From IMG/VR virus record IMGVR_UViG_3300030095_003983, positions 1 to 30,566 of that record: a stretch of 30,566 nt of DNA. One strand, 5' to 3'. A model generated the notes under the pieces. The model searched no databases. It saw only the letters and a list, made by a program, of their open reading frames with translations, and was not told the DNA's origin. Of the stretch, positions 9,789 to 30,566 are shown one piece after another. Origin of the DNA: a virus (lineage: Duplodnaviria; Caudoviricetes). Made by a program: the position numbers and the translations under genes. How positions within the stretch are numbered: the stretch's first letter is position 1; each line of letters begins with the position of its first letter.

Positions 9789-12700
9789 ATGGCCGATTTA
9801 AAATCAAAACAAATTAAATTCCCTTTAACGGGGACGAGTGTAGTATCGAGTTCAGCACAAATAGCTACTGACATTAGTGGCTCTTTTGTTGCTGATAGTG
9901 GTAGTTTCTCAACAAGAATAACAACCGATAGTGGTAGTTTCTCTACAAGAGTTACAACCGCAGAAACCGAACTAACGAATACACTCGTATCAAGTTCAGC
10001 ACAAATATCTACTGACATTAGTGGTTCGTTTGTAGCAGATAGTGGTAGTTTTTCCACAAGAATAACTGCTGATAGTGGTAGTTTTTCTACAAGAGTTACA
10101 ACCGCAGAGTCAGAATTAGGTAATACTTTATTGTCAAGTTCAGCACAAATAGCTACTGACATTAGTGGTTCTTTTGTTGCTGATAGTGGTAGTTTTTCCA
10201 CAAGAATAACCACCGATAGTGGTAGTTTTTCTACAAGAGTAACAACTGCAGAATCTGAGTTAGGAAATACACTATTATCAAGTTCAGCTCAAATATCAAC
10301 GGACATTAGTGGTTCATTTGTAGAACCAAGTGCAAGTTTCTCTACACGAGTTACAACCGCAGAAACAGAATTAGAAAATACACTCGTATCGAGTTCAGCA
10401 CAAATATCTACTGACATAAGTGGTTCATTTGTAGCACCAAGTGCAAGTTTCTCAACGAGAGTTACAACCGCAGAAACAGAATTAGAAAATACTTTAGTAT
10501 CAAGTTCAGCACAATTGTCAATCGATATTAGTGGGTCGTTTGTGGCACCAAGTGCAAGTTTTTCAACAAGAGTAACAACTGCAGAATCAGAATTAGGAAA
10601 TACTTTAGTGTCAAGTTCAGCACAATTATCCACAGACATAAGTGGTTCATTTGTGGCGCCGAGTGGAAGTTTCTCAACAAGAATTACAACTGCAGAATCT
10701 GAATTAGGAAATACCTTATTATCAGGTTCAGCTCAAATAGCTACTGATATTAGTGGTTCTTTATCCACAGCAGCGGTCATAGGATTAGGAGCAGGAATAA
10801 TATCTGGTTCAAGTTCTAATAGTAACTTAACATCAGCTATTGTTATAGAGGGAGCAAGTATTGTATCAGCATCTGCACAATTATCAGATGATATAAGTGG
10901 TTCATTATCCACAGCAGCAGTTTTGGGATTAGGAGCAGGAATCATATCTGGTTCAAGTTCCAATAGTAATTTAACAACAGCAATAGTCGGTGAGGGAGCA
11001 AACATAGTATCAGCTTCCGCAATGGTTGACCACGATTCTACAACAAACTTCGTAGCAAATGAACACATAGACCATAGTTCAGTAAGTGTAACTGCTGGTG
11101 ATGGTATGACCGGTGGTGGAACAATCGCAGCAAATAGAACTTTAAATGTTGTTGGTGGAACAGGTATAACTGCAAACGCAAATGATGTCGCAACGAACGA
11201 CTCAGAAATTGTTCACGATAACTTAAGTGGATTTGTAGCAAATGAACACATTGACCATACAAGTGTAACAATGACAGCTGGGGCAGGTTTAACAGGTGGT
11301 GGAACAATTGCTTCAACAAGAACATTAGCAGTAGGTCAAGGAACAGGTGTTACGGTAAATGCAAATGATGTTGCGATTGGACAAGATGTAGGAACTGACC
11401 AAGATGTAACATTCGCATCCGTGACCGCAACAGGAAATATTGTTGCACAAGGTGATGTTATAGCAGAAAATTATATAGTGAGTTCATCAGTAACCTTTAT
11501 GACTTCATCAATTTTGAGTGGTTCTACAAGATTTGGTGATACACCAGCAGATGATACACATCAATTTACAGGTTCATTATTCGTAACTGGTTCAACATTT
11601 AACATTGACGAAAATGGTGGTGTAAGTTCAAGTGCAAGTGGTTCTTTCTTAAATGTAGATGTTTCAAATAACTTAGGAGTTAGTGGTAAATTTACATTAC
11701 CTAACATTACAGATGTATCAGCGTCTATCGCAAGTGCGGTAGCAGGTGGTGATGATATGGGTAACCATACAGCAACACAAGATTTAGATATGGACGGAAA
11801 TGATATATTTGATATAGGACATATTAGTTCAAGTGGAAACATTAGTGGTAGTGCGGGAGATATATTAGGATTTGCAAGTGCTTCATTCTCAAATGTTGAC
11901 GCTCCACACATCAAAGCAACAAATGTCCACGGAACAATTTTAACAGCAACACAAGCAACGATTGACCACGATTCATTAGCAAACTTCGTAGCAAATGAGC
12001 ATGTTGACCACTCATCAGTATCAGTTACTGCAGGAGACGGACTAACTGGTGGTGGAACAATAGCATCTAACAGAACTATAAATGTAGTGGGTGGAGACGG
12101 AATTACAGCTAACGCAAATGATGTTGCAATTACAGCGGCTCAAACAACAATTGAATCCATATACAAAGAAGACTTAGTAATAGGTGAAGACAACCAAACA
12201 CAGATTGACTTTGAAACAGCTAACGAAATACACTTTGATGTAAATAATTCAGAACTACTTAACCTAACAGGTAATAAAATAAGTGGTTCACAAGCATCAA
12301 CAGGTTCGTTTGGTAGTTTAGTAACGGACGCTAATGTTGGTATCGGTGAGTCAAATCCAAATGTTCCATTGGAAGTTATTGGTAGTGTTAGTTCAAGTGC
12401 AAGTGGTTCTTTCTTAAATGTAAAAGCAAGTAATAATGTAAACGCAACAAATCTATACGGAACAATTTTAACAGCAACACAAGCCACAATAGACCACGAT
12501 AGTTTAGCAAATTTTGTAGCAAATGAACACATAGACCATAGTGGAGTAACAATTACAGCAGGGGACGGATTATCGGGTGGTGGAACAATAGCATCCACAA
12601 GAACTCTTGCGGTGGACGCTACAGTTTTAAGAACAACAGGTGATAGTGTAATATCGAGTTCGGCACAATTATCTGACGACATAAGTGGTTCATTATCCAC

Positions 12701-13670
12701 AGCAGCAGTCGTTGGATTGGGAGCAGGTATAATATCTGGTTCAAGTTCCAATAGTAGTTTAACAACAGCTATTGTTGGAGAGGGAGCAAACATAGTATCG
12801 GCATCCGCAATGGTGGACCACGATTCCGCAACAAATTTTGTAGCAAACGAACACATTAATCACACAAGTGTAACGATTACTGCAGGAGATGGTTTGACTG
12901 GTGGTGGAACAATCGCATCTACAAGAACATTAGCAGTAGGTCAAGGAACAGGTGTTACCGTAAATGCAAATGATATTGCTATTGGACAGGCAGTAGAAAC
13001 AGATTCCAATGTTCAATTTGCAAACATTATAGCAACTGCGACAGCTTCATTAGCTAAAATCTCAGGTTCATTAATAGAATCAGAGGGAGACTTCACACTT
13101 GATTCATCAGGAGATATTATTCTTGACGCAGACGGAACAGACATCATATTAAAAGATGGTGGAACTTCATTTGGTAGTTTCAAAAGAGCATCTTCTGACT
13201 TTATTATTAAAGCAGAAACAGCGGATAAAGATATTCTATTTAAAGGAACTGACGATAGCACAACCATAACTGCACTTACATTAGATATGTCTGAGGGTGG
13301 AAATGCACAATTCTTAGGAAATATATCTGGTTCTCAAATAGAAGCAAGTGGAGATGTAATCGCATTCGGTTCATCAGATAGAAGACTTAAAGACAACATT
13401 ACACCAATCACAGAACCATTATGGAAAGTAAGTCAAATAGGTGGATATGAATTTGATTGGAATGACAAACAAGACGCATATAAAGGACACGACGTTGGTG
13501 TTGTCGCTCAAGAAATACATAAAGTATTACCAGAAGTTGTAGCAGAAAGAAGTAATGGATACTTAGGTGTTAAGTATGAAAAGATAGTTCCATTGTTAAT
13601 TGAATCTATAAAAGAATTAAATAAAAAAATTGAAGATATTGAAAAAAAATGTGATTGTTTGAATAAATAA
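9789..13670 (+). CDS. long tail/neck fibre protein with C-terminal intramolecular chaperone (peptidase S74) domain
   Basis: 1293 aa, Ser/Gly/Thr-rich repeats; C-terminal SDRRLKDNI...GVVAQEI..VLPEVV...V.YEKIVPLLIESIKEL autocleavage chaperone signature. Confidence 0.85.
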   Translation: MADLKSKQIKFPLTGTSVVSSSAQIATDISGSFVADSGSFSTRITTDSGSFSTRVTTAETELTNTLVSSSAQISTDISGSFVADSGSFSTRITADSGSFSTRVTTAESELGNTLLSSSAQIATDISGSFVADSGSFSTRITTDSGSFSTRVTTAESELGNTLLSSSAQISTDISGSFVEPSASFSTRVTTAETELENTLVSSSAQISTDISGSFVAPSASFSTRVTTAETELENTLVSSSAQLSIDISGSFVAPSASFSTRVTTAESELGNTLVSSSAQLSTDISGSFVAPSGSFSTRITTAESELGNTLLSGSAQIATDISGSLSTAAVIGLGAGIISGSSSNSNLTSAIVIEGASIVSASAQLSDDISGSLSTAAVLGLGAGIISGSSSNSNLTTAIVGEGANIVSASAMVDHDSTTNFVANEHIDHSSVSVTAGDGMTGGGTIAANRTLNVVGGTGITANANDVATNDSEIVHDNLSGFVANEHIDHTSVTMTAGAGLTGGGTIASTRTLAVGQGTGVTVNANDVAIGQDVGTDQDVTFASVTATGNIVAQGDVIAENYIVSSSVTFMTSSILSGSTRFGDTPADDTHQFTGSLFVTGSTFNIDENGGVSSSASGSFLNVDVSNNLGVSGKFTLPNITDVSASIASAVAGGDDMGNHTATQDLDMDGNDIFDIGHISSSGNISGSAGDILGFASASFSNVDAPHIKATNVHGTILTATQATIDHDSLANFVANEHVDHSSVSVTAGDGLTGGGTIASNRTINVVGGDGITANANDVAITAAQTTIESIYKEDLVIGEDNQTQIDFETANEIHFDVNNSELLNLTGNKISGSQASTGSFGSLVTDANVGIGESNPNVPLEVIGSVSSSASGSFLNVKASNNVNATNLYGTILTATQATIDHDSLANFVANEHIDHSGVTITAGDGLSGGGTIASTRTLAVDATVLRTTGDSVISSSAQLSDDISGSLSTAAVVGLGAGIISGSSSNSSLTTAIVGEGANIVSASAMVDHDSATNFVANEHINHTSVTITAGDGLTGGGTIASTRTLAVGQGTGVTVNANDIAIGQAVETDSNVQFANIIATATASLAKISGSLIESEGDFTLDSSGDIILDADGTDIILKDGGTSFGSFKRASSDFIIKAETADKDILFKGTDDSTTITALTLDMSEGGNAQFLGNISGSQIEASGDVIAFGSSDRRLKDNITPITEPLWKVSQIGGYEFDWNDKQDAYKGHDVGVVAQEIHKVLPEVVAERSNGYLGVKYEKIVPLLIESIKELNKKIEDIEKKCDCLNK
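9845..10760 (+). repeat. coding tandem repeats (~35-46 aa unit, about 8 copies)
   Basis: SSSAQI[A/S]TDISGSFVA[D/P]S[G/A]SFSTR[V/I]TTAE[T/S]EL.NTL repeated, with synonymous variation at DNA level. Confidence 0.9.
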
Positions 13671-17072: not shown

Positions 17073-17104
17073 TTCGTTTTCCTTTATCATTATCATAACA
17101 CTAT

Positions 17105-17133
17105 AATATACAAATACTATTTGTAAATGTCAA
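17105..17133 (-). promoter_or_regulatory. sigma70-type promoter TTGACA-17-TATATT
   Basis: Perfect -35, 17-nt spacer, upstream A-tract. Confidence 0.8.
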
Positions 17134-17167
17134 GCTTTTTTTTAACTTTTTTTAAAAGTGGGAGATG

Positions 17168-17422: not shown

Positions 17423-17457
17423 TTCATTTTCCTTTATATTGTTATTAATCATACTAT

Positions 17458-17486
17458 AATATATGAATAAAAAATGACAATGTCAA
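17458..17486 (-). promoter_or_regulatory. sigma70-type promoter TTGACA-17-TATATT
   Basis: Perfect -35 and 17-nt spacer; near copy of the other three sigma70 promoters. Confidence 0.8.
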
Positions 17487-17551
17487 GTAAAAACTTCTAA
17501 AAAACTTCTAAAACTATATCATATTTACCATACACTTTTTTTGGTTTTGTT

Positions 17552-27223: not shown

Positions 27224-29273
27224 TTTCAAAAAAATACTCAACGAGTTAAGTTATAGAGTTTCAACAGGGATTCCAGACCTAACTAACGAACAACACTTAA
27301 TAAAATTGTGGGACATTTTAAAAGAACACAATTGGAATATTGATGCTCGTGTAGAATTATTAAAGAATTTAGATGAAATGTCTATCGTTAAGAATAAAAA
27401 AAGTGGTAATGTTTATCCAGTAAAAAAATTCAAACCACAAACTCAAACCATTGTTAAAAAGAATGCAACCAAAGATGATATTGAAAAAGCAAAACAAGGT
27501 GCAGGTGAAGATGAGTTTGATACATCTGATACACCACAAGAAGAACCAAAAGAATCAGAAAAAAATAAAGACTTGAAAACAGACATTAAGTTTGATGAAG
27601 AAAATGCACCAGAGTCAGTTAAAGAAGACAATGACCCAACAGATGAGGAGTTCGCTAAAGATAAAGATATCAAGCCACAAGAATTTGACCCAAATGAAAT
27701 AGAAGTTGGTGGAAAAAAAGTTAAATTACCAGTAACCGAAGAATCTTTGAATGGTATTTTTGGACAACCACCTTATAAATTTCCTAAGAAATATATGAAC
27801 ACATTAACGAGAATATTAAATACTCAAAAAACAGGTGAATACGACCCTAACATTAAAAAATTTACTTCAAAAGCTGGTGGTGGACAAGTTTCAGCCCAAG
27901 CTTCTGAACTACTAACTATGATGAGTTCAACCTTATCAGATAAAGAGTCAGGTGAATTATTTGAATTATTAGGAAAAACATCTGAAGCTGCAGGTGGGAG
28001 ACAAATTTTAGATAAGAGTTGGATAGAAGCGTCAAAAGCTATGAGAGATTCTACTTTAGCAAATGTAAAAGAAATACACGGAGATGATGCGGTAGTTGAA
28101 TTTGGTGGTTGGGATATTAAAGAGGATGTTGAAGACGGAATAGGTATGTCTGATTACGCTAATGACAAAGGGTTTTCCACCGATACATACTTTAGAGTCA
28201 AAAAGTCTGATGGTAGTGTTGCTATTTCTGAAATGTCTAATAAAAAAGATTTAGATGTAAACTTAGGACAACCAAGTGCTGCAGATACAGAGGACAGAAT
28301 GCTTGAAGCAGGTAGAGAAGTTAAAGAAAGTAGACGAGTAAAGAATTTTACTAAGAACGCGGAAAAACGTTCAAGAGATAGATTAAAATCAGTAGATGAA
28401 AGTGATATAGAAGTTCTTGATAAAATGGATAAAATGAACGATAAACAACTTGTAAAACATTTGTCTAAATTACCATCATCAATCAGAAGATTATTACTAC
28501 AAGGTTCACCACCAGACTATGATTTAAAAAAATCCGGTGGAAAGCAACTTGCAAGACAATTCTTACAAATGAGAAACATACCTTTACCTTGGGATACATC
28601 TAATAAAGAATTTACAAAAAAAGCAAAAGAATTAGGATTCCCATTAGGAACTCAAAAGGGTGCTAATAAGTCTGCAATATTTATGAGTTATTTACAATAC
28701 GCAGACGAACTGAACAATGGAGTTGAAAACGGAAAAGGTTTTGAATTTATACATAATCAAGTAGGTGTCATAGGTAAAGAACCATTTCCAGAGGGTTCTC
28801 AAAGAGATGTTCAGAATAACTTCGTTGACAATATGGGTGAAGAAGAGTCGAGACCAATTGTGTTAGACACCATTAAAGAAAAACTACCTTTGAAATCATT
28901 AATGGAAGGTGAAGAATCTATGGCATTAGGTAGTAATAGACTATCACCAGATGTATGTCAAGAGTTATTTGGAACAACAGACTATAATAAGGTAACACAA
29001 AATCTAAAAGTTAAAACTGATAAAGATGGAAATCGTTTCTTAACATATAGTGTTGAAATAGATGGTGAGAAAAAAGAAGTGGATATAGCACAATTAAAAG
29101 CTCGTGGAAAAGGAAATGGATATACATCTATATCATTAGAAATGTCAATGGCAGAGGACTTTAAACATAAAGTTCATTGTGCAAATAAAAAATCTAAAAA
29201 TCCACCAAAAAATTATACAGGTGATGAAATAAAAACAATCAAAAGACTTGAAAACAAATTTGGGAAGTGTTGA
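27213..29273 (+). CDS. large hypothetical protein
   Basis: 686-aa ORF; N-terminal ILNELSYRV..GIPDL segment, acidic linker, possible D..ExSxK motif. Confidence 0.75.
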   Translation: MKTNFKKILNELSYRVSTGIPDLTNEQHLIKLWDILKEHNWNIDARVELLKNLDEMSIVKNKKSGNVYPVKKFKPQTQTIVKKNATKDDIEKAKQGAGEDEFDTSDTPQEEPKESEKNKDLKTDIKFDEENAPESVKEDNDPTDEEFAKDKDIKPQEFDPNEIEVGGKKVKLPVTEESLNGIFGQPPYKFPKKYMNTLTRILNTQKTGEYDPNIKKFTSKAGGGQVSAQASELLTMMSSTLSDKESGELFELLGKTSEAAGGRQILDKSWIEASKAMRDSTLANVKEIHGDDAVVEFGGWDIKEDVEDGIGMSDYANDKGFSTDTYFRVKKSDGSVAISEMSNKKDLDVNLGQPSAADTEDRMLEAGREVKESRRVKNFTKNAEKRSRDRLKSVDESDIEVLDKMDKMNDKQLVKHLSKLPSSIRRLLLQGSPPDYDLKKSGGKQLARQFLQMRNIPLPWDTSNKEFTKKAKELGFPLGTQKGANKSAIFMSYLQYADELNNGVENGKGFEFIHNQVGVIGKEPFPEGSQRDVQNNFVDNMGEEESRPIVLDTIKEKLPLKSLMEGEESMALGSNRLSPDVCQELFGTTDYNKVTQNLKVKTDKDGNRFLTYSVEIDGEKKEVDIAQLKARGKGNGYTSISLEMSMAEDFKHKVHCANKKSKNPPKNYTGDEIKTIKRLENKFGKC

Positions 29274-29680
29274 TGAAAACTCAATTACTATGCACCTTTA
29301 CTTCTAAACCAAGATTAAACGATACCTTGGATATCATCATCACTTGTAATGATGTATTGTATGAAAAAGTATATGTGTTTCAAAACGAAAACGACTTAGG
29401 ACAATTAATCTGCACATACAACATAGAATACAAATACGATTACGAAGAAAGCATTATCGATACTATATCTTTACATAGAAAGAAACAAAGTAATACATTG
29501 TATACAATCAACGCATTAAACGAAGTCATCAGAGAAAAAAATGGTGGTGTGTTGGATAAATCATATATGGTGGATTGGAATGAGTTTTCCAACACACTAC
29601 TACTCACAAACGAAATGGGATTACAAAAAATCCCTACCAAAATCTATCAAATCATAGATACAACTTCTTGGAAAAAATAA
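29273..29680 (+). CDS. hypothetical phage protein
   Basis: TGATG coupling gives the start MKTQLLCTF; contains HRKKQSNTLYTINALNE. Confidence 0.75.
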   Translation: MKTQLLCTFTSKPRLNDTLDIIITCNDVLYEKVYVFQNENDLGQLICTYNIEYKYDYEESIIDTISLHRKKQSNTLYTINALNEVIREKNGGVLDKSYMVDWNEFSNTLLLTNEMGLQKIPTKIYQIIDTTSWKK

Positions 29681-29689
29681 AAAAAACAC

Positions 29690-29718
29690 TTGACATTGTC
29701 ATATTTTTTTTGTATCTT
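29690..29718 (+). promoter_or_regulatory. sigma70-type promoter TTGACA-17-TATCTT
   Basis: Perfect -35, 17-nt spacer, upstream A-tract. Confidence 0.75.
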
Positions 29719-29726
29719 AGTGTATA

Positions 29727-29939
29727 ATGATAGATAAAATAGAACAATTAATAAATACATTAGAACAAGAGATTAATGACGGATATAATACCTTACCAGA
29801 TTATCAAGCAAATAATGAAGGTAAGACTTATGTCAATGGTGCTCAAGCTACATTGTATGAATTACAAAAACAAGTAATAGAATTAAAACAAGGATTGAGA
29901 TTAGGTAAAAACTTTTCACTTCTTGGAAAAAATAATTAA
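29727..29939 (+). CDS. small hypothetical protein, probably leaderless
   Basis: 70-aa ORF; ATG 8 nt after the -10 box, no SD. Confidence 0.65.
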   Translation: MIDKIEQLINTLEQEINDGYNTLPDYQANNEGKTYVNGAQATLYELQKQVIELKQGLRLGKNFSLLGKNN

Positions 29940-29947
29940 AAAAAAGC

Positions 29948-29976
29948 TTGACATTTACATTTTTTATTAGTATATT
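29948..29976 (+). promoter_or_regulatory. sigma70-type promoter TTGACA-17-TATATT
   Basis: Near copy of the 17105-17133 promoter; followed by non-coding structured sequence. Confidence 0.8.
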
Positions 29977-29984
29977 ATAGTGTA

Positions 29985-30280
29985 AGTTATTTGACAATTA
30001 GGTAGTAAATTCATCACGGAAATCTTATCGTGTCCAACGGGGCGATGTTAACGGCGGTAAGACAGGTGGTTAGGTAAACAAACAAACAGAATCACTTTGG
30101 AAACATTGTGTGGTTTGTTCAGATATGCCGGGAGCACAAACATCAGATTAGATACTGGTCTTGGAAACTTGACTTGGAGTCTGGTGGCGAAAAACAATAG
30201 TCTGGGTATCAAGGGGTGATGAGAGAACGCGAAGATTCGATTTAGATGAAAAGGTTCGTATTTACTACCTTTGTTAAACT
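29985..30280 (+). ncRNA. putative large structured non-coding RNA of unknown family
   Basis: Own promoter; no ORF in the track; perfect 11-bp closing stem 30000-30010/30260-30270; nested stems with G-U pairs and GAAA loops; GC content above background. Confidence 0.65.
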
Positions 30281-30305
30281 TCTCAGAAAAAATTAAAAAA
30301 AAATA

Positions 30306-30330: not shown

Positions 30331-30369
30331 GTTTAATATATATAAATATACTAAGTAGTTTTAGTATTA

Positions 30370-30566
30370 GTTTTTTGACAATTTGGAATTGGAAAGTAGA
30401 CACACCGACGGGTGTTTCTATGGGATTGGCTGAAAAATGGGTAAGCATTAGAAGCCCATAAAGCAATCTATGACAAAGTTGTGGTGACTTGATAATTGGA
30501 AAATATTTTAATTATCTATATCGACAGATATTGTCTAATGTATTTCCGTAAAACAGACAAGATGAT
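30370..30566 (+). ncRNA. second putative structured RNA or leader (runs off the window)
   Basis: Consecutive stems tagacacacc/ggtgtttcta, gattg.gct/agcaatc enclosing atgggt/gcccat, gataatt/aattatc, ttgtct/agacaa; no ORF. Confidence 0.5.

Follow-up and report, generated by a model that had tools for sequence, protein, structure and literature searches.

OLE, ROOL, GOLLD and ARRPOF are stand-alone structured RNAs, and ROOL and GOLLD occur in phages (PMC12286853 and PMC12990946, accessible portions). In the solved RNA cages, each chain makes five or more contacts, and a kissing contact between copies of OLE is backed by a palindrome-to-palindrome switch (Kretsch et al., PMC12286853, same portion). 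HYER dimers are driven by palindromic pairing (PMC12990946, same portion). The manA RNA (RF01745) is about 200-300 nt long, occurs in marine T4-like phages, and has a multi-helix junction, GNRA loops, and variable peripheral helices (PMC2864571, accessible portion). According to the available part of a preprint, it forms cages of 8 to 60 copies through loop kisses and GNRA contacts (bioRxiv 10.64898/2026.07.01.735769). The accessible portions of PMC2864571 and PMC9964418 present manA as a candidate cis-regulator without mention of a neighbour like the RNA described here.

We analyzed a 30,566-nucleotide stretch of phage DNA (hereafter, the window), which is a 30.6-kb linear virus record with a completeness of ~15%. 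The window carries structural genes for a Gp23 capsid protein, sheath, tail tube, and baseplate. The nearest matches of the capsid protein, at 52-56% identity, come from Microcystis phage Mel-JY01, Flavobacterium immuto phages, and an uncultured phage of 484 kb. A 1293-aa protein encoded at 9789-13670 ends in a Peptidase_S74 intramolecular chaperone domain and is likely a tail fibre. Near the downstream end of the window lies a stand-alone, ~270-nt, multi-domain structured non-coding RNA on the + strand. Its carriers form one narrow, uncultured clade of T4-like marine phages, and all 18 runs listed as holding or possibly holding the RNA are marine.

The RNA resembles manA in size, phage setting, multi-helix junction, GNRA loops, and variable peripheral helices. 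In addition, the two are direct neighbours and share the same leader, and a manA loop is complementary to the junction strand J3/4 of the RNA. However, the manA model has no match over 29985-30280 at E up to 10, nor in diverged copies. The RNA also lacks the 5'-3' pseudoknot of manA and has another junction, and its candidate contact is a symmetric palindrome, whereas manA uses a two-loop kiss. As for the loops that pair in manA, GUGGUG and ACCA, GUGGU is found only in a junction strand of the RNA, and no loop contains ACCA. Like the OLE, ROOL, GOLLD, and ARRPOF kind, the RNA is stand-alone and has multiple helices supported by covariation, and its size is similar to that of ARRPOF (255 nt in the accessible portion of its report). 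Unlike OLE, ROOL, and GOLLD, it is shorter, has no supported pseudoknot, and is not beside tRNAs in the window, and its oligomers are predicted only. No sequence or Rfam model match to OLE, ROOL, GOLLD, or ARRPOF was found. The features of the locus, all on the + strand, are as follows.

29948..29976, +: sigma-70-type promoter TTGACA-17-TATATT, with hexamers TTGACA at 29948-53 and TATATT at 29971-76, identified by sequence check and in homologs
29985..29998, +: boxA-like leader AGTTATTTGACAAT
30000..30010, +: 5' strand of P1, pairing with 30260-30270
30011..30017, +: 5' strand of P2, which closes the four-way junction by pairing with 30216-30222
30023..30062, +: arm 1, with P3a (30023-31/30054-62), P3b (30032-35/30040-43), and a variable loop; two-sided changes
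30044..30053, +: 10-nt bulge of arm 1 containing the palindrome GUUAAC (30047-30052); candidate kissing site, from the palindrome switch
30063..30080, +: junction strand J3/4, conserved, single-stranded, 18 nt
30081..30119, +: arm 2, a long hairpin with a conserved tandem U-U next to the GAAA loop at 30100-30103
30122..30210, +: arm 3, with stems 30122-31/30202-10, 30134-35/30187-88, 30141-49/30178-86, and 30158-63/30168-73; 10 of the 12 pairs with two-sided changes
30164-67, +: GAAA loop of arm 3, capping stem 30158-63/30168-73
30223..30259, +: optional 3' module that can be swapped; relatives lack it or have unrelated hairpins in its place
30260..30270, +: 3' strand of P1, pairing with 30000-30010
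30369..30566, +: neighbouring element, not part of the RNA; a boxA-like leader followed by the first manA copy of a tandem pair, identified with the manA model and cut by the contig end

The helices and promoter hexamers that an earlier note had read from this DNA are all located where it placed them. Its further observations on the region also hold: no ORF of at least 60 aa overlaps the RNA, and the GC content is 0.385-0.425 over 30000-30299, compared with 0.24-0.31 in 200-base intervals starting at 29000-29900. The promoter matches its consensus with a score of 11/12, and transcription would start near 29982-29984. A scan of the window gives nine such sites, against a mean of 8.2 in shuffles; the count equals the shuffle mean, and therefore the scan alone is no evidence. 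The promoter and the 14-nt leader are retained in 47/47 homologs with enough upstream DNA. The same type of promoter (29690-29718) precedes an ORF of 70 aa that lies immediately before the RNA. Promoters of the form TTGACA-17-TATATT/TATCTT at 17098-17141 and 17453-17487 (minus strand) drive small ORFs at 17133(-) and 17486(-), which are inserted counter to the direction of the structural operon.

The leader presumably resembles the rRNA boxA. It matches the window twice, before this RNA and before manA, compared with a chance expectation of 0.09. On the + strand of relatives, it heads only RNAs or empty cassettes. Among 64 promoter-plus-leader matches in viral contigs, 31 precede this RNA, 12 a small sister RNA, and 18 an empty cassette, and three are unrelated. 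The 3' part of the leader can lengthen the terminal helix by pairing with 30271-30278.

Two other kinds of cassette carry this leader. In the empty ones (L004:1189-1270, L006:4415-4496, and others), promoter and leader run directly into an A-run and the next promoter; these are likely scars of lost RNA genes. The sister RNA is a separate, leader-headed RNA of ~70-120 nt with its own promoter (L016:2129-2262, L010:4452-4545, L012, L015, and L020). It sits upstream of the main RNA in some relatives and has a variable central hairpin with 10 distinct forms. A possible H-type pseudoknot in it is formed by GUUCGU/ACGAAC crossing AAUGAGA/UCUCAUU. Rfam gives no match over it in L520 and L503.

The earlier note had pointed to metatranscriptomes for a discrete transcript. 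Contigs from 4/4 RNA runs, from four studies, cover the RNA. These contigs are assembled and were picked for containing the RNA stretch, with no DNA run as a control; they thus indicate presence in RNA libraries only, not strand, ends, or level. In run X2, the depth is 79-255 across 30002-30232 and at most 2 in 26 bins upstream, and two contigs terminate, at 30013 and 30228, in a sequence that we take to be adapter. Runs X9 and X11 (2/4) cover upstream genes too. Runs X2 and X3 do not cover 30233-30280, the region of the variable 3' module, and are therefore uninformative there.

The RNA is an optional cassette. We used the neighbouring 134-aa protein as an anchor and examined 80 loci. The RNA is present in 20/80, all within the 27 closest loci (76-99% protein identity), and in 0/53 of the others. 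In L013, L024, and L025, the anchor gene runs straight into manA with no RNA between them, indicating that the cassette is optional. A pattern search identified 32 viral contigs with the RNA, and additional patterns a further three. Of 119 metagenome pattern loci, 47 are true copies, overlapping with the viral set. In total, 47 distinct cores were collected and 46 aligned, with pairwise identities of about 79-99.5% in a 42-row set; L026 (9-nt internal duplication) and L322 (contains N) were left out of alignment A4.

Distant relatives were sought in records that are mostly fragments and with patterns that require exact motifs. Among viral contigs, pattern scans led only to this narrow clade and to chance matches. 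A covariance model (R1) gave a best E of 0.94 across 60 protein-anchored loci without a BLAST hit; on 49 whole records, all fragments, it had no match in 42, and the seven matches are known carriers. None of three INPHARED relatives matches in a search that had no positive control, and blastn against INPHARED found none. The 15 pattern hits in GTDB genomes match the pattern itself only, with no true copy among them. A 41-nt look-alike of arm 3 in L549 and L586 lies within a long ORF and was rejected as chance. In L038, L041, and L069, which are more distant relatives, the slot after the anchor gene contains pilin-like (type IV) genes, judged by eye from an N-terminal methylation-type motif; they may hint at the host or at superinfection exclusion.

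The fold predicted from the alignment, a closing stem and a four-way junction with three arms, two of them GAAA-capped, and a swappable 3' hairpin, holds across the homologs. In the nested model of 46 cores, 94.8% of cells pair, and 12/56 pairs have two-sided changes, bearing out the covariation that the earlier note had looked to homologs for. Neither figure is reached by any of 500 shuffles (0/500), a comparison inflated by the relatedness of the copies, and the model was derived from the same sequences. Controls with slid partners give 34-50% pairing and at most three two-sided pairs. RNAalifold on 21 sequences independently yields a near-identical nested structure. Structural support rests on the homologs because one copy folds barely better than its shuffles: the window copy has a folding z of -1.59 (11/200 shuffles equally good), and the mean z over 12 of 46 cores is about -1.0.

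The alignment also contains 311 G-U but only 2 A-C cells, which agrees with the strand that the earlier note had assigned from G-U pairs, and copy lengths fall into all three classes modulo 3 (22, 15, and 10 copies), together indicating a non-coding RNA of the + strand. The marginal folding of single sequences and stop-free stretches of up to 90 codons in some copies would suit an element of the DNA itself, a decayed remnant, or a small protein-coding gene. The G-U excess, the 12 two-sided pairs, and the spread of lengths speak against all three, and this explanation is scarcely credible.

The terminal pairing that the earlier note had seen is an 11-bp helix, P1, Watson-Crick throughout. Its one change on both sides is in L399, from AAAU/AUUU to AGAU/GUCU, and copies that lack the 3' hairpin have a shorter form of 6-8 bp. 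The inner helices at 30011-17/30216-22 and 30023-30/30055-62 and the hairpin at 30081-30119 are likewise confirmed in sequence. P2 is 100% paired in the 46 cores, and its sole change is one-sided (U-A/U-G). Arm 1 has two-sided changes from U-A to C-G in three cores and from C-G to U-A in one. Three copies (L028:2880-3119, L340, and L438) have a 13-nt duplication-like insertion in its loop, with a repeat of GGGCGAU, and a further small hairpin may result. In arm 2, the tandem U-U is retained while the flanking A-U pair shifts, and the support for the outer stem is a paired insertion, not substitutions. Reading CAUUG/CUUAG in this arm as a quasi-palindrome was rejected, as L488 shows an intramolecular shift of pairing register. 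The internal loop AGAUACU of arm 3 (30150-56) is near-invariant, with AGAUAC in 46/47 cores. K-turn, loop-E, and 11-nt GAAA-receptor motifs are absent, as judged by eye against the consensus for each.

The 3' segment has 24 distinct forms of 10-84 nt. Since not every copy has the 3' hairpin, the length of the RNA varies between 213 and 307 nt. The module of the window folds weakly by itself (z +0.92), and its form is also found inside the separate small sister RNA, as L016 and a joint in run X9 show.

The earlier note had proposed that two crossing stems, 30141-49/30178-86 and 30151-56/30205-10, form a pseudoknot or switch. Both pairing strings are present, but the pseudoknot or switch is not supported. 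The stem 30151-56/30205-10 has 0/6 two-sided pairs and loses two pairs in L493, the most diverged core. A rival nested stem, 30122-26/30206-10, pairs in 100% of cores and has a two-sided U-G to A-U change in L493. The crossing stem is compatible with 45/46 cores because its 5' strand nearly repeats 30122-26. The repeat of AGTCTGG that had been noted is real (30178 and 30199), but the doubling depends on an 11-nt insertion near 30191-30201 that marks the subtype of the window and is present in only 10/46 cores.

The same strand bears on whether the RNA, as a cis-acting leader or conformational switch, controls manA or the gene that follows. In 45/46 cores, AGAUACU could pair with the strand used by the outer stem of arm 3, yet this alternative has no pair with a two-sided change and is broken in L493. 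No intrinsic terminator was found on the + strand, and a ribosome-binding site and ATG, opening a small ORF, follow the RNA directly in 19/42 informative copies. That fraction is too small for a dedicated mRNA leader. The downstream element varies among copies, and in the window it is the leader that belongs to manA. A role in cis is highly improbable.

The earlier note had concluded that the RNA is a novel phage ncRNA or a ribozyme. The first part stands, with no Rfam match, a covarying fold, and a promoter in front; the second is unsupported, as no known catalytic RNA model matches. Rfam has no match at gathering score in the window, and no family matches over 29985-30280 or in diverged copies. 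The sole credible Rfam match in the last 967 bases, at E up to 10, is manA (E 0.00086 at 30398-30566). ARAGORN finds 0 tRNA or tmRNA genes in the window, and Rfam none. RNase P type A and B models have no match at E up to 10; single-family searches also gave none but are weak, as the first look with the same tool missed manA too. The same limit applies to the group I intron models, for which there is no match and the RNA is intergenic with its own promoter, and to the large SRP RNA model (RF01854, with the helix-8 motif), which has no match either. A P7-like look-alike of group I introns (30143-50/30198-205) was rejected, as it needs the insertion present in 10/46 cores.

Bacterial RNase P RNA (RF00010, RF00011) has paired ends, a stem followed by a hairpin, and an optional hairpin before the 3' end, and the RNA shares this layout. 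Its order of P1, P2, hairpin, junction strand, two arms, P2', optional hairpin, and P1' is thus loosely RNase P-like, and its junction strands are strongly conserved, as might be expected of a new ribozyme or RNase P-like processing RNA. However, it has no conserved P4 pseudoknot and no recognisable conserved-region motifs. A P4-like pairing of J3/4 with ACUACC at the 3' end would compete with P1, is mismatched in 5/47 cores, and lacks its 3' strand in L367, L488, and L493. No ribozyme model in Rfam matches the window copy at E up to 10 or diverged copies at E up to 5. Instead of lying within a gene, the RNA stands alone; it has no supported pseudoknot, and the window contains no tRNA. A catalytic role is therefore very unlikely.

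No description of the RNA was found in the literature; the accessible portion of PMC10085705 concerns other motifs. Strings of its sequence were found neither in papers nor in the readable supplements of PMC10690425 and PMC10085705, a scope that leaves the alignment archives of PMC10690425 as a place for an unnamed entry. The RNA is real and has a new fold without a family in Rfam 15, and it belongs with the stand-alone structured phage RNAs of unknown role.

The bulge of arm 1 suggests what such a role might build on. Its palindrome is GUUAAC in 35/47 cores and GAUAUC in 12/47; positions 30048 and 30051 change jointly, with no single mutant, and the bulge, which was chosen post hoc after viewing the data, is otherwise invariant except for two single-base deletions. 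The two positions are three bases apart, and an intramolecular pair between them would need a 2-nt loop. Computed self-duplexes have energies of -6.4 and -7.2 kcal/mol for the two palindromes, and the single-change forms have none. The switch is followed by no further column, either elsewhere in the RNA or in the manA tandem of 22 loci, and no covarying partner of the bulge was found in manA. The symmetric kiss of OLE has the same palindrome-to-palindrome covariation (PMC12286853, accessible portion).

This switch without another tracking column, the OLE signature, the HYER dimers, and the manA cages together favour self-assembly. We put the probability at roughly 45% that the RNA is a subunit of an RNA-only assembly in which copies would pair with each other through the palindromic bulge. 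Early firing of the promoter would depend on a host-type polymerase, and Nus factors would be drawn to the boxA-like leader, as they are to other stable RNAs that are not translated; what boxA does is described in the accessible portion of PMC4807359. The 5' and 3' ends would pair and shield the transcript. The bulge (UGUUAACG or UGAUAUCG) would then make a symmetric duplex of 6-8 bp with a second molecule, and the two GAAA loops would provide A-minor contacts. A less likely further step would be a kiss between the unpaired GGUUA strand and the UAACC loop of the manA next to it. By analogy, the assembly might serve to sequester or shield cargo or host factors.

Several observations temper the reading of the switch. 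Recombination is heavy, with 1060/1485 site pairs failing the four-gamete test, and the six switch changes on the tree are therefore not independent origins; the switch may have arisen just once, in an ancestor. Few crossovers would be expected anyway between positions so close together. An alternative partner for the bulge in the window copy is the variable P3b loop. The RNA has a single self-complementary site, against the five or more contacts that each chain makes in the solved cages.

Some of the same conserved elements would also suit a monomer that serves as a decoy or scaffold for a host or phage protein, such as a nuclease of a defence system or a regulator that binds RNA, with its arm tips and invariant loops as the contacts. 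Both arms keep the tandem U-U within two pairs of the GAAA loop despite a register shift, and the AGAUAC loop and J3/4 are near-invariant with no covarying partner. The RNA is also an optional cassette with an early-type promoter, in a slot that accepts small ORFs as well; an optional cassette behind an early promoter is typical of host-takeover cargo. However, no protein gene travels with the RNA: the next ORF is missing in 23/42 copies, and in L031 it occurs where the RNA is absent. Many copies have lost the GGA loop motifs (CsrA/RsmA type), and we rejected a CsrA sponge, as GGA is not conserved. A monomeric decoy, which also leaves the palindrome switch unexplained, is doubtful but is the main rival to self-assembly.

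The remaining conserved site, J3/4, is considered together with manA. Where there is enough flanking sequence, manA is downstream of the RNA in 32/32 copies (including L027 and L160), and the second manA copy in relatives passes the Rfam gathering score. The tandem is seen in L029:4849-5231 and in the window (30369-30566), and a terminator-like hairpin and a new promoter precede the ssDNA-binding gene; manA thus looks stand-alone rather than part of a 5' UTR. The first copy has a GUGGUG loop and no ACCA loop, and the second has an invariant UAACCA loop in another helix. This split of the loops suggests that the two manA copies kiss each other.

Within J3/4, GGUUA is retained in 46/47 cores, even when displaced by three bases. 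The segment AGGUGGUUA (30064-72) is an exact 9-nt complement to the loop region of the second manA of relatives, a match reached by 1.65% of shuffles for the J3/4 strand but by 35% for the whole RNA. However, J3/4 and the manA loop do not covary: where J3/4 varies, the loop stays the same, and in several of the variants the duplex with manA is weakened from -13.7 to between -10 and -5.7 kcal/mol. Docking on manA is therefore a lead only, and a weaker add-on to self-assembly.

If J3/4 paired with another RNA and the molecules did not pair with each other, the RNA would be an accessory or antagonist of manA, or a decoy for ribosomes. The exact complement, the constant position of manA downstream, and the conserved GGUUA are in line with the former. 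AGG-N-GGU in J3/4, which no start codon follows, resembles a Shine-Dalgarno sequence, and AGGAGGU occurs in two cores. The absence of compensatory change and the frequency of the match in whole-RNA shuffles argue against pairing with manA, and AGGNGGU is swapped for AGGUUAGUGA in 7/47 cores. A partner for J3/4 in the absence of self-pairing is unlikely. A G-quadruplex in J3/4 was rejected, as a G pair is missing from 7/47 cores. It is likewise distinctly unlikely that the RNA is an accessory subunit of a protein-free particle of several RNA species, in which it would dimerize through the bulge and dock through GGUUA on the UAACC loop of manA.

The boxA-like leader provides a practical tag for locating other RNA genes in these phages. 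Within the clade, the RNA is naturally present or absent, its palindrome comes in two interchangeable forms, and its hairpins can be swapped, all beside manA. These variants bear on the role of the self-assembling phage RNAs manA, ROOL, and GOLLD. Co-assembly with manA, if true, would be a natural particle of more than one RNA species, a kind that is not listed in the accessible portions of the structure papers. Such a multi-species particle would represent a modular RNA-only phage assembly, in which the swappable hairpins would be exchangeable cargo or surface domains.
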